Source: Candidatus Aenigmatarchaeota archaeon (GTDB taxonomy: Archaea; Aenigmatarchaeota; Aenigmatarchaeia; QMZP01). Taken from it: a DNA stretch of 31,072 nt. The notes under the pieces are model-generated. The model saw only the letters and a list, made by a program, of their open reading frames with translations. It searched no databases and had not been told where the DNA came from. The translations under genes were made by a program, and so were the position numbers. Shown in pieces: positions 3 through 31,072 of this stretch. Each line of letters opens with the position of its first letter. The stretch's first letter is position 1. The stretch spans positions 1-31,072 of the forward strand of contig JACQOB010000168.1 in assembly GCA_016202745.1 (NCBI GenBank), in the 5' to 3' direction.

Positions 3-3000
3 GTCGGCATCACGCAGGACACGCTTGGCAACATAAGCAATTTCAATTTAACAGCGGTGCATGTCATAATACAATTCTTTGATATCCCTACAGATTCCCA
101 AAAGCAGGTATTAACGGCTAATGGTGTCACCATCCTGGATTACATACCTGATTTTGCCTGGTTCGCTTCCATACCAACAGCTAATGCCTCCGTTATAGCT
201 AACATATCTTTTGTGAGGTCGGTAACGCACATCATACCGGAAGACAGGTTTGCGCCCTCATACAGGCAGAGGCAGCTTAATGACACAAACAGGACCATTC
301 CTGCATTGTTCTTTGCTGATTCTGATAGCAGGTCAAGGGAGATTCTTTTATCTGGGTTTAATGCAACAATACTGGATCAGTTTCAAAACTACTATACTGT
401 CAGCATAAATGAGAGTGTGGTTTCTGAGCTTGCAAAGGAGGACATGGTGCAATACGCGGATGAGGAAATATCAATCAATACAACCAATGACGGCTCCAGG
501 GCATCAATATCAGTCAATGATGTGCAGGCAGCCCCGTTCAATCTGCACGGAAACGGCTCAAGGGTTGCGGAGTTTGACGACGGGCTTGTATTCAATCACA
601 CAGATTTTGCAGGCAGGCTGATTTATGGGGAAAATGTGCCTATTGGAACACACGCGACCCATGTCGGCGGGACAGTGGCCGGCGCAGGAACCCTAAGTGC
701 AGTATTTGGTGGATCTCCCTTCCAGTGGAGGGGGATGGCCGACCAGGCAGTCCTCGTCTCATTCCAGTGGCCTGCTGTCTGCTGTTGGTTTGTTTCAGTT
801 CCACTGACAATCTCAAAGCACAATGCTGCCATAAACATGTTTAATGCGACAATAGGCACGAATTCATGGGGCATGCCCGCTTCCAATACATGGGGTGAAT
901 ACGGGCTTCCTGGAGCAGCCTATGACAACATCACAAGAGGCAGCCTTGGAAAAGCAATGACTATAATCTTCGCCGCAGGAAATGAGCAGCAAGATGGCAT
1001 TCTCGCTTTCGGTACACCATACAATACAACAAGGACACCAGGCAATGCAAAGAATACAATTACAGTAGGTGCAATCTATTCTGACATAGATCTTATAACA
1101 TGCTTCAGCAGCTTTGGTCCGACTGATGATGGGAGGCTTAAGCCTGATATTGTCGCACCTGGTGATGAGGCCAATGACTCGGGTATTCAGTGCAACTCCG
1201 GTGCAAAAATCAAATCAACACTGCCCGGAAATACTTACGGCGAAAGTGCAGGGACATCAATGGCAGCACCTGCGGTAGCTGGCACATCGGCAATCCTTTA
1301 TGAGATATACAGGAACACACATAATAATCTTGATCCACTCGCATCTACAATAAAAGCCGTGCTAATTCACACTGCCAAGGATTTAGGGAACGCAGGCCCG
1401 GACTTCACATACGGATATGGAAAGGTGAATGCCACAAAGGCGGCTATTCTTATATCTGACGATACGCAACAGAACGATGTTATTATTGAGAAGAATATCA
1501 CCAACGGCATCAACCATACCATTGACATATCCATCTCCCAGGGGGCGGACATAAAGGCAACACTCGTATGGAGCGATTATCCTGGGACTCCAAATGCCCT
1601 GATATCCATTGTGAACAACCTTGACCTGCTTCTGGTATCCCCAACTGGCCAGGTAAAAAGGCCATGGACTCTGAATCACACCATCCCCACCCTTCCGGCA
1701 ACCACAGGCATTGACAAAAGGAATCCTGTGGAGCAGGTCTTTGTGCAGAATGCCACAGCCGGGACATGGAAGGTTGTCGTGAACGGGACACTGCTCCCCC
1801 AAGGGCTACAGAGCTATTCTCTCATATTGCCATTCGCTCAACTGGCTCCACAGGCCGCGTGCCTTACAATTGCAAACAGCACAAACCTGACTGCGAATCT
1901 AACATGCAATGGCACTGCGATAAACATCCTTGCACCCAACATAACACTGGATTGCAAAGGCCATATGCTAACAGGAAATGGCACAGGCAAGGGTATAAAT
2001 CTAACCAATCAGAATGGCGTCACTATCAGGAATTGCAGAATTAAAAATTTTGAAAATGGGATTCTCATACTGAATGGTAACAGCAATACGATAACCAATA
2101 ACACGCTGGAAAATAATACCCTGAGTGGAATAGTTTTTGTGGGGTCGGGCAACACAATAATGAATAACACGGTTAAGGGCAGCCAGGCAGGGATTCAGCT
2201 GCAGGGCAACGGGAATGTGCTGGAGAACAACAATATAAACAACAATTCACTTGGCGGCATACTTATGAATTCTGCGACAAATAACACGGTAAAGGGCAAT
2301 ATCTTCTCGAACAATACAAGGTCAATCAGGATAGGCGACAGCAGCGTGGATAATCTAATATCCGGCAACACCATTCTGAACTCATTAGACGGAATTGCAT
2401 TCTTCGGCTCATCAGTGCCTTTTGAAACTAAAAACAACATAGTTTCTGGCAACATGATAACTTCAAACGGCAACGGGATTTTCATATTCTTCTCAAACAG
2501 CAACAATATAACAAACAACACAATAATGCACAATTCCATTGGAATCAGAACGTTCTTATCGTCTTCCGGCAACAGGATATTCAACAACTTCTTTAACAAC
2601 ACCCTTAACGTTAATGACACTACAGGACCCAACCTCTGGAACACCACAAAACAGGCTGGGAATAATATAGTAGGCGGCCAGTTCATTGGAGGAAATTTCT
2701 GGCATGATTATGCCGGCACAGACTTGGATGGTGATTCGCTGGGCGACACCCTGTTGCCATACAATTCTGGCGGTGGCATAACAGGCGGGGGGGATTTCCT
2801 GCCATTGCTCACCACACCGCCTTTCAATCCTATAAGCTCCTGCTTGAACGATCCAGGCCAGCCAGGATCATGGAAACTTGTCCAGAACATTACGGCAAAC
2901 TTGCCTAACTCATCCTCAATCTGCATTGAACTGCTATCCGATAATGTCACCATCGACTGCCAGGGATACGCGCTTATCGGAAATGGAAATGGTTTTGGCA

Positions 3001-31072: not shown

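Follow-up and report, generated by a model that had tools for sequence, protein, structure and literature searches.

Giant secreted proteins with hydrolase and adhesion domains in a groundwater Aenigmatarchaeota genome: an exchangeable-head scaffold and a candidate SurA-type chaperone

How DPANN archaea attach to other cells and take up material from them is largely obscure, and no host is known for any member of the Aenigmatarchaeota. Here we ask what is encoded by a 31,072-bp stretch of Aenigmatarchaeota DNA from groundwater (contig JACQOB010000168.1), and what its products would do. This stretch, called the window below, is one whole contig (C137) of a 1.02-Mb assembly of 174 contigs. An initial annotation made from the sequence alone had described at least 30 kb of co-oriented giant genes, and five plus-strand open reading frames (ORFs) indeed occupy the entire window, with just two short intergenic gaps. 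We consider it probable, with some reserve, that they encode a battery of giant hydrolases and adhesins that bind other cells or debris and cut protein, murein stem peptides, and phosphodiesters. The five genes are as follows:

3-4181, plus strand: gene A, at least 1392 aa, truncated on its 5' side by the contig boundary; an S8 subtilase with two NosD/right-handed beta-helix modules after it.
4231-14310, plus strand: gene B, 3359 aa, GTG start; member of a DPANN giant scaffold family.
14384-15073, plus strand: gene C, ~229 aa from its likely start at 14384 (ORF 14351-15073); membrane anchor and SurA-core domain.
15074-25825, plus strand: gene D, 3583 aa; S8 protease, NPP-like domain, and adhesion domains.
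25816-31071, plus strand: gene E, at least 1752 aa, 3' end cut; CARDB and FG-GAP giant.

Every module named in the initial annotation was recovered by Pfam, including Peptidase_S8 in A and D (9e-37 and 4e-35), NosD/Beta_helix (1e-83 in gene A, and 3e-88), PKD_4, CARDB, TSP_3, F5_F8_type_C, and He_PIG/Big_9. The arrangement of gene B, also from Pfam, is as follows:

4231-14310, plus strand: signal peptide, TSP3, beta-helix, conserved block 1, variable head slot, pseudo-lipase, CARDB, PKD, and NosD modules, in that order.
7033-9369, plus strand: split lipase-like alpha/beta-hydrolase "pedestal" (PVLLVHDY at aa 935; elbow GSGMGG at aa 1593-1599; Pfam DUF915, 2e-5).
7819-8856, plus strand: variable head slot (aa 1197-1542), the non-aligning stretch between conserved blocks.
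8359-8673, plus strand: NlpC/P60 cysteine peptidase within the slot (aa 1377-1481; Pfam NLPC_P60, 1e-9, or 5.9e-11 when the slot alone is scanned).

Eight homologues of gene B (3140-4516 aa), three of which bear the NCBI names Aenigmarchaeota, Micrarchaeota, and Nanoarchaeota, align with it at 38-54% identity over ~100/363-1200 and ~1510/1540-3053, with no alignment in between. The intervening stretch differs in content across the nine members: Pfam detected NlpC/P60 in B, an I9 propeptide with S8 in two members, Amidase_3, GH25 muramidase, and papain C1 in one member each, and no match in the remaining three. The head differs even within one genus, being NlpC/P60 in the window's species and S8 in a sister species (genome G001), where the scaffold is 54-56% identical. 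In the sister species, the cluster that contains this gene (locus L047) consists of a 7,561-aa FG-GAP/LamG/CARDB giant and a 1,515-aa fn3, Amidase_2, and Kelch protein, followed by the S8-headed B-family gene. The catalytic motifs of the NlpC/P60 head are present in B (FDCSGF with Cys1382, NHVLIWVG with His1451, and LIHASG with His1467; assigned by motif only), and a PDB sequence search with the head gave no match.

The slot falls between the first strands (PVLLVHDY) and the rest of the lipase-like fold, as judged by sequence order only; an AlphaFold model of B aa 900-1800 (pLDDT 46, and 20-30 in the slot region) was too poor for insertion topology. In the family, the nucleophile elbow of this fold reads GSGMGG, ASGMGG, or GNGMGG, and the position of the canonical Ser is Gly in 9/9 members. 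Lipid chemistry is therefore unsupported, and the lipase-like fold is predicted to be a conserved, catalytically dead pedestal or scaffold rather than a fourth enzyme activity.

G+C content at third codon positions (GC3) is 0.436 for the slot and 0.314 for the NlpC/P60 core, with flanks at 0.61-0.73 and a genome ORF average of 0.653; the fall of ~20-30 points coincides exactly with the slot. It is consistent with the head having been acquired recently from a source of lower GC. Across the contig, the 1-kb segments with the lowest GC3 are the three catalytic heads (273-1670, 7741-9050, and 16511-18540), with values of 0.44 for the S8 domain of A, 0.44 for the slot of B, and 0.43-0.49 for the S8 module of D, compared to means of 0.62 for the cluster and 0.65 for the genome; the heads of L044, L047, and L048 show a weaker dip in the same direction. 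Such dips could be due to foreign origin of the heads or to codon-usage tuning of catalytic domains. Among 41 genomes of the order searched, NlpC/P60 was found in the window's genome and in none of the others (1/41), and no Mur ligase was found in the window's genome; a role in remodelling the archaeon's own wall is thus unlikely.

Downstream of gene B, gene C abuts gene D, and the start of gene E overlaps the end of gene D. Two TATA-like boxes were read from the sequence:

4197-4205, plus strand: TTTTATAAA, archaeal type, ~26 nt 5' of the GTG start of gene B; putative promoter element.
14342-14349, plus strand: ATTTAAAG, 5' of gene C, ~26 nt from its likely start.

The position of ATTTAAAG argues for a gene C start at TTG 14384 or 14390 rather than at 14351, and the presence of a box before B and another before C suggests two transcription units, B alone and C-D-E. 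We compared the genomic context of ten close SurA-N-only homologues of C. The next gene was co-oriented and large in 10/10, and in most cases it abutted the C homologue or overlapped it by 4 nt. Three of these next genes are complete (2407, 3592, and 3642 aa), and the others are cut by contig ends at lengths of at least 83, 140, 328, 701, 1193, 2032, and 2817 aa. Six of the ten, from loci with DNA available for comparison, are relatives of D at 30-58% identity, comprising five orthologues and one paralogue. The orthologues include one that is full length and colinear, with 48% identity from end to end (L044), one of 3,592 aa with 47-50% identity (P0158 in L045), one with 48% identity over 1958 aa (L035), one with 49% identity at its N terminus (L036), and one with 58% identity over 868 aa (L034). 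The paralogue (P0159, 2,407 aa, at 2983-10925 of L046, from Logan run SRR29366193) carries an Amidase_3 domain (aa 52-357) in place of the N-terminal beta-helix/S8 part. Its start is overlapped by the SurA-N gene, and the pair adjoins archaeal RNase P and aIF5A genes. In L045, from a metagenome-assembled genome (MAG) named "Nanoarchaeota archaeon" by NCBI, an FG-GAP giant follows the D orthologue, matching the C-D-E order, with only 28-30% repeat-level identity to E. Housekeeping proteins encoded on the contigs with D homologues match their counterparts in the window's genome at only 31-51% identity, suggesting that the C-D cassette spans deeply divergent DPANN. The claim that a SurA-N gene heads the downstream operon is supported: C lies upstream of D, and the coupling recurs in many archaeal contigs. 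The proposal of a conserved cluster stands in part: B alone and C-D-E each recur, but the 30-kb cluster as a whole is not conserved. B-family genes elsewhere do not adjoin SurA-N genes, and the L045 genome has no B scaffold, indicating that B and C-D-E are independent and are neighbours here by chance.

Gene C is a candidate chaperone by both sequence and predicted structure. Its domain matches Pfam SurA_N_3 (4e-13), and the profile of its family matches the N domain of Escherichia coli SurA (3e-11). For its AlphaFold model (pLDDT 86), Foldseek returned the SurA core with a probability of 1.00 and a best TM-score of 0.58-0.66, and the top 23 PDB matches were all SurA, PEB4/Cj1289, LIC12922, PpiD-YfgM, or PrsA. 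A Pfam scan of the ~229 aa gave no match to a parvulin peptidyl-prolyl isomerase (PPIase; Rotamase) domain. A single N-terminal membrane anchor, with Lys/Arg ahead of the transmembrane helix, predicts an N-in, C-out orientation. SurA_N_3 was detected in 4/371 genomes of the phylum and in 0/4 control archaea; no giants adjoin the SurA-N genes of G009, G160, and G339. In G009 (contig C5, 9620-16915; L029), a full-length protein with SurA-N and parvulin domains has as neighbours a beta-helix/Ig protein and a secreted M12-like metalloprotease that carries dockerin. Within the phylum, this PPIase-bearing protein may represent the ancestral state of gene C. A word-index homologue search with C returned C itself only, and HMMER searches of 1.84 billion cluster representatives identified ~20 clusters of short (180-260 aa), full-length homologues at 30-40% identity. 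The nearest large clusters of short SurA-N-only proteins (ESM Atlas, P0003) belong to the candidate phyla radiation (CPR) groups Minisyncoccota, Gottesmaniibacteriota, and Collieribacteriota, which live in groundwater habitats, as do DPANN. These clusters are a lead for an origin of gene C by transfer.

Genes D and E contribute further enzyme-like and adhesion domains (from Pfam, and from motif positions for the propellers):

15074-25825, plus strand: gene D parts in order, signal peptide, beta-helix, TSP3, discoidin, S8, Ig-like and propeller-like core, NPP-like, and Ig/cadherin-like tail.
17045-18040, plus strand: S8 subtilase of D.
21107-21925, plus strand: NPP-like domain of D (Phosphodiest).
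25816-31071, plus strand: gene E parts in order, signal peptide, two CARDB, Ig-like domains, and two FG-GAP beta-propellers (FG-GAP_3, 7e-59; CARDB, 1e-23).
~28273-29160 and ~29683-30690, plus strand: FG-GAP beta-propellers of E, ten FG-GAP repeats.

Pfam families matched in D are TSP3, discoidin, S8, Phosphodiest (9e-15), Big_13, He_PIG, and Big_9. The S8 Asp-His-Ser triad and oxyanion Asn motifs are present in both A and D and are conserved in four members of the D family. Also invariant in the D family, along with the triad, are the NPP-like motifs DG[IM]D, TTMS, THDHG, and TS[DE]H; alignment with the Xanthomonas NPP (PDB 2gsn) matched the Asp in LDG, the Thr in TTMS, and E/D-H. The NPP-like domain likely retains some phosphoesterase or metal-binding function, although several positions depart from canonical NPPs. 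PDB sequence searches with D 1480-2010 and D 2850-3350 gave no match.

The assignment of these genes to an archaeon bears on all that follows. The assembly is 74.5% complete with 1.2% contamination, and it encodes the archaeal/eukaryotic ribosomal protein L15e as an intact ORF. Among GTDB species representatives, the closest L15e (81% identity) is from Candidatus Aenigmatarchaeota archaeon NC_groundwater_1119_Ag_S-0.1um_53_31. This MAG is the sister-species genome G001 (JACQIG010000080.1, with locus L047), which a protein from the NCBI record matches at 100%; the two genomes belong to one GTDB genus but to separate species. In-frame TAG stops that appeared in the L15e match proved to be an extension artefact. 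No 16S rRNA gene was found in a search of the genome. Classification by ribosomal protein, which the initial annotation had proposed as a check, accordingly places the genome in the Aenigmatarchaeota and identifies it as archaeal and not bacterial, and the presence of L15e together with the genus shared with an Aenigmatarchaeota MAG agrees with the annotation's call of a DPANN-type archaeon.

Could the contig nevertheless be a mis-binned bacterial piece, for example from Omnitrophota or CPR, carrying an ordinary bacterial array of secreted enzymes? The contig bears no marker gene, its tetranucleotide correlation with the rest of the bin is 0.84 (median, 0.94), and SurA-N is a bacterial-type domain, with short SurA-N-only proteins common in CPR. 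Despite these features, the G+C content of the contig (51.5%) is close to that of the bin (51.8%), and the bin's other low-correlation contigs likewise carry giant genes. The B orthologue is present in the sister-species MAG, and the NCBI names of family members are all DPANN. Most directly, relatives of B, C, and D adjoin archaeal S19e, RNase P subunits, aIF5A, FtsZ/FKBP26, and a ribosomal protein operon. Orthologues on contigs with such archaeal housekeeping genes essentially exclude bacterial mis-binning, which we regard as extremely improbable.

How might these proteins act together? A single hydrophobic signal segment with an A-x-A-like cleavage site after it lies at the N terminus of each of B, D, and E, and none of the three has another transmembrane segment. 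N-x-S/T sequons exceed the composition-based expectation by a factor of 1.6-2.0, and the genome encodes an AglB/STT3 oligosaccharyltransferase (G000:C157:1191-2537). We propose that the giants are Sec-exported, probably N-glycosylated products of two independent, horizontally mobile modules. In the first, the ~3,000-aa scaffold of B (beta-helix caps, PKD, CARDB, and dead lipase pedestal) would present one exchangeable head, here NlpC/P60. In the second, C, encoded in the same operon as D, would most likely be an anchored holdase without PPIase that receives D at the Sec exit and maintains it in an unfolded or soluble state until folding of its many domains takes place extracellularly. D would join an S8 protease and an NPP-like phosphoesterase to Ca-binding and adhesion domains, and E would add integrin-like FG-GAP propellers. 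Remaining at or near the cell surface, the giants would hold their target by the adhesion modules and cut it, serving in attachment and envelope breaching. Cutting may feed, or give access to, an organism unable to make its own building blocks.

Several observations weigh against this proposal. A, B, and D have no C-terminal anchor, so that surface attachment is assumed and release is possible. This lack of a membrane or C-terminal anchor is one of the features expected if the giants were released digestive exoenzymes that scavenge dead biomass (protein, murein fragments, and nucleic or teichoic acids) with neither cell contact nor a living host. Signal peptides that look cleavable, between TSA and F, ALS and F, and ATA and Q, and enzyme types that are classically degradative would also suit such enzymes. 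However, adhesion or scaffold domains (discoidin, PKD, CARDB, FG-GAP, cadherin-like, and TSP3) account for over 80% of each protein, which would be costly for a diffusing enzyme in a 1-Mb genome, and the head polymorphism between sister species resembles arms-race loci. We therefore judge free exoenzymes unlikely, though still a serious alternative to the surface-bound battery that we favor.

The active sites raise a second set of objections. The S8 domains could serve self-processing only. In the NPP-like domain of D, the ligands are non-canonical, with THDHG in place of D-x-x-G-H (invariant in 5 homologues), Thr instead of the Asn that follows the nucleophile in NPPs, and no conservation of the final His, making the activity of this domain uncertain. 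Of the four hydrolase chemistries in the initial annotation, those of S8 and NlpC/P60 keep their residues, phosphodiester chemistry is qualified by these ligands, and lipid chemistry is not borne out. Such substitutions, the lipase fold that is dead across the whole family, and the sequon enrichment with AglB would be in keeping with giants that form the archaeon's own S-layer-like envelope glycoproteins, processed by S8, with the other enzyme-like domains acting as inactive binders. Yet the catalytic residues of S8 and NlpC/P60 and most of those of NPP are kept across homologues that are 33-58% identical, the slot of relatives holds various intact hydrolase families, and the genes are absent from nearly all relatives, unlike an essential envelope component. 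An envelope role of this kind thus seems quite improbable.

Distribution across genomes is a further point against a hydrolase/adhesin battery of broad importance. Searches of the 370 other genomes of the phylum returned no D orthologue, and among all 371 the B scaffold is confined to the same genus (one other genome); both modules are therefore rare in species-representative MAGs (D in 0 and B in 1 of the 370). Unless giant genes are lost in assembly or binning, such rarity implies that the modules lie outside the core of the DPANN lifestyle. Of 80 relatives of the L045 genome, one had a match to D, partial and at 30% identity. Either horizontal spread or systematic loss of giant contigs from MAGs would account for the patchy distribution of D. 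Phage records and IMG/VR contigs yielded no relatives.

What, then, would be the target? NlpC/P60, Amidase_3, GH25, and Amidase_2 are murein-specific in bacteria, and GH25 and the amidases are not known to act on pseudomurein. Since the head repertoire (NlpC/P60, Amidase_3, and GH25, with Amidase_2 next door) consists mostly of murein hydrolases, it points to a bacterial target. Against this, no murein-binding domain (LysM, SH3b, or PG_binding) was detected. Our best guess is that the main target is bacterial murein, in living cells or debris, rather than an archaeal host. A broader and more tentative idea, which we hold to be possible but doubtful, is that several DPANN phyla share by horizontal transfer a two-part toolkit. 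One part would be a giant scaffold with a single hydrolase warhead that is exchanged from species to species (NlpC/P60, amidase, muramidase, or proteases), and the other a giant protease/phosphoesterase dependent on a dedicated SurA-type holdase on the Sec side. If this were true, the holdase would be part of the first dedicated extracytoplasmic chaperone-client pair in archaea, and the murein-specific heads would imply that bacteria, and not archaeal hosts, sustain some Aenigmatarchaeota.

Logan contigs from three groundwater DNA runs support the assembly: positions 6100-26099 are covered at 5-10x with zero mismatches, and the C/D and D/E junctions are bridged. In two of the three runs, one Logan contig leaves the window sequence at 17184 and another rejoins it from 19051; there may be a co-occurring strain with a different sequence across D aa ~704-1326 (S8 to Ig region). 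One run has 36 additional letters at a joint in the TSP3 repeat region of D (15746-15778), probably reflecting repeat-number variation. A search for tRNA genes in the window found none. Elsewhere in the assembly, further ORFs of 870-2,958 aa run off contig ends (C4, C3, C122, C27, C92, C44, and C146), and by sequence the genome appears to hold further fragmented giant genes. Stop-to-stop frames of at least 800 aa make up 15.6% of the assembly, housekeeping genes included.

Gene A, the first gene of the contig, contains the second S8 domain of the window:

549-1421, plus strand: S8 subtilase domain of A (aa 183-473; Pfam Peptidase_S8).

Its triad motifs are DDG (aa 192), HATH (aa 217), and GTSMAAP (aa 417), accompanied by NSWG. 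The S8 domains of A and D are not closely related to the S8 heads carried by B-family relatives. The C-terminal modules of A and B are 42% identical and end in a common tail, GG..R.R..[LV]PLK (nt 4113-4154 and 14245-14286). This tail was considered as a sorting signal and is unlikely to be one, being neither conserved in the eight B-family homologues nor present at any other place in the genome; A and B share it through duplication of the terminal NosD module. An archaeosortase/exosortase-like gene is present in the genome (G000:C83:3370-3840), and a matching C-terminal sorting signal is absent from all complete giants of the window.

Giant surface proteins and murein hydrolases of DPANN are already published as mediators of interaction, and the advance here lies in mechanism and detail. 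The locus supplies testable parts: a putative chaperone-client pair for exporting 400-kDa proteins across the archaeal membrane, and an exchangeable-head scaffold from whose head types the target-envelope chemistry, bacterial murein in this case, could be predicted. Confirmation would suggest that these archaea have bacteria as partners or prey, and slot content could serve as a metagenomic marker of target range.

Among known systems, the SPEARE proteins of Nanohaloarchaeota (Hamm et al. 2019; PMC6642349) are giants of 3,000-8,500 aa, mostly extracytoplasmic, that have been proposed to act in host contact, one of them having been detected by proteomics. Like them, the window's giants are DPANN proteins that join a serine protease, here S8 in A and D, to many adhesion domains. 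Three features define SPEARE proteins: a type III restriction-endonuclease region in the cytoplasm, which is their most conserved part; a transmembrane anchor close to the C terminus; and laminin-G domains (PMC6642349). In contrast, Pfam and NCBIfam scans of A, B, D, and E found no nuclease or helicase family, Pfam gave no Laminin_G match in the window's giants, and these have only the N-terminal hydrophobic segment, with the C terminus of E lying beyond the contig end. Neither a SurA-N partner nor a swappable slot has been described for SPEARE.

Gene C resembles SurA, PrsA, and PpiD (PMC9643414, PMC2956729; PDB 1m5y, 8zht, and 4wo7) in its SurA core fold and its PpiD-like N-terminal anchor. 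It differs from them in being archaeal, in having no parvulin domain, and in being genetically tied to a single giant predicted client. PpiD sits at SecYEG and receives emerging proteins (PMC9643414), and by analogy to PpiD/YfgM, and to PrsA, C may act as a holdase for D at the Sec exit. A literature search combining SurA with DPANN returned nothing relevant.

With respect to targets, archaea that have no murein of their own secrete murein-cutting enzymes, prominently so in DPANN, with peptidoglycan hydrolases and "large lytic murein transglycosylases", and these enzymes have been interpreted as means of antagonizing bacteria or preying on them (PMC12352652; Vigneron et al. 2022, PMC9723730). 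The published enzymes are modular peptidoglycan hydrolases with binding domains or GH23, whereas in gene B the NlpC/P60 is an insert in a conserved ~3,000-aa scaffold. The "Archaeovorin" and dockerin-type giants of Omnitrophota have been proposed as predation proteins of ultra-small cells (bioRxiv 10.1101/2023.11.21.568195). They share with the window's proteins a multi-enzyme composition that includes S8/peptidase, TSP3, and cell-wall-degrading domains. The Omnitrophota giants, however, are bacterial proteins of >10,000-80,000 aa with many transmembrane segments, and they carry SecA-like domains that serve their own export in place of a separate SurA-type partner.

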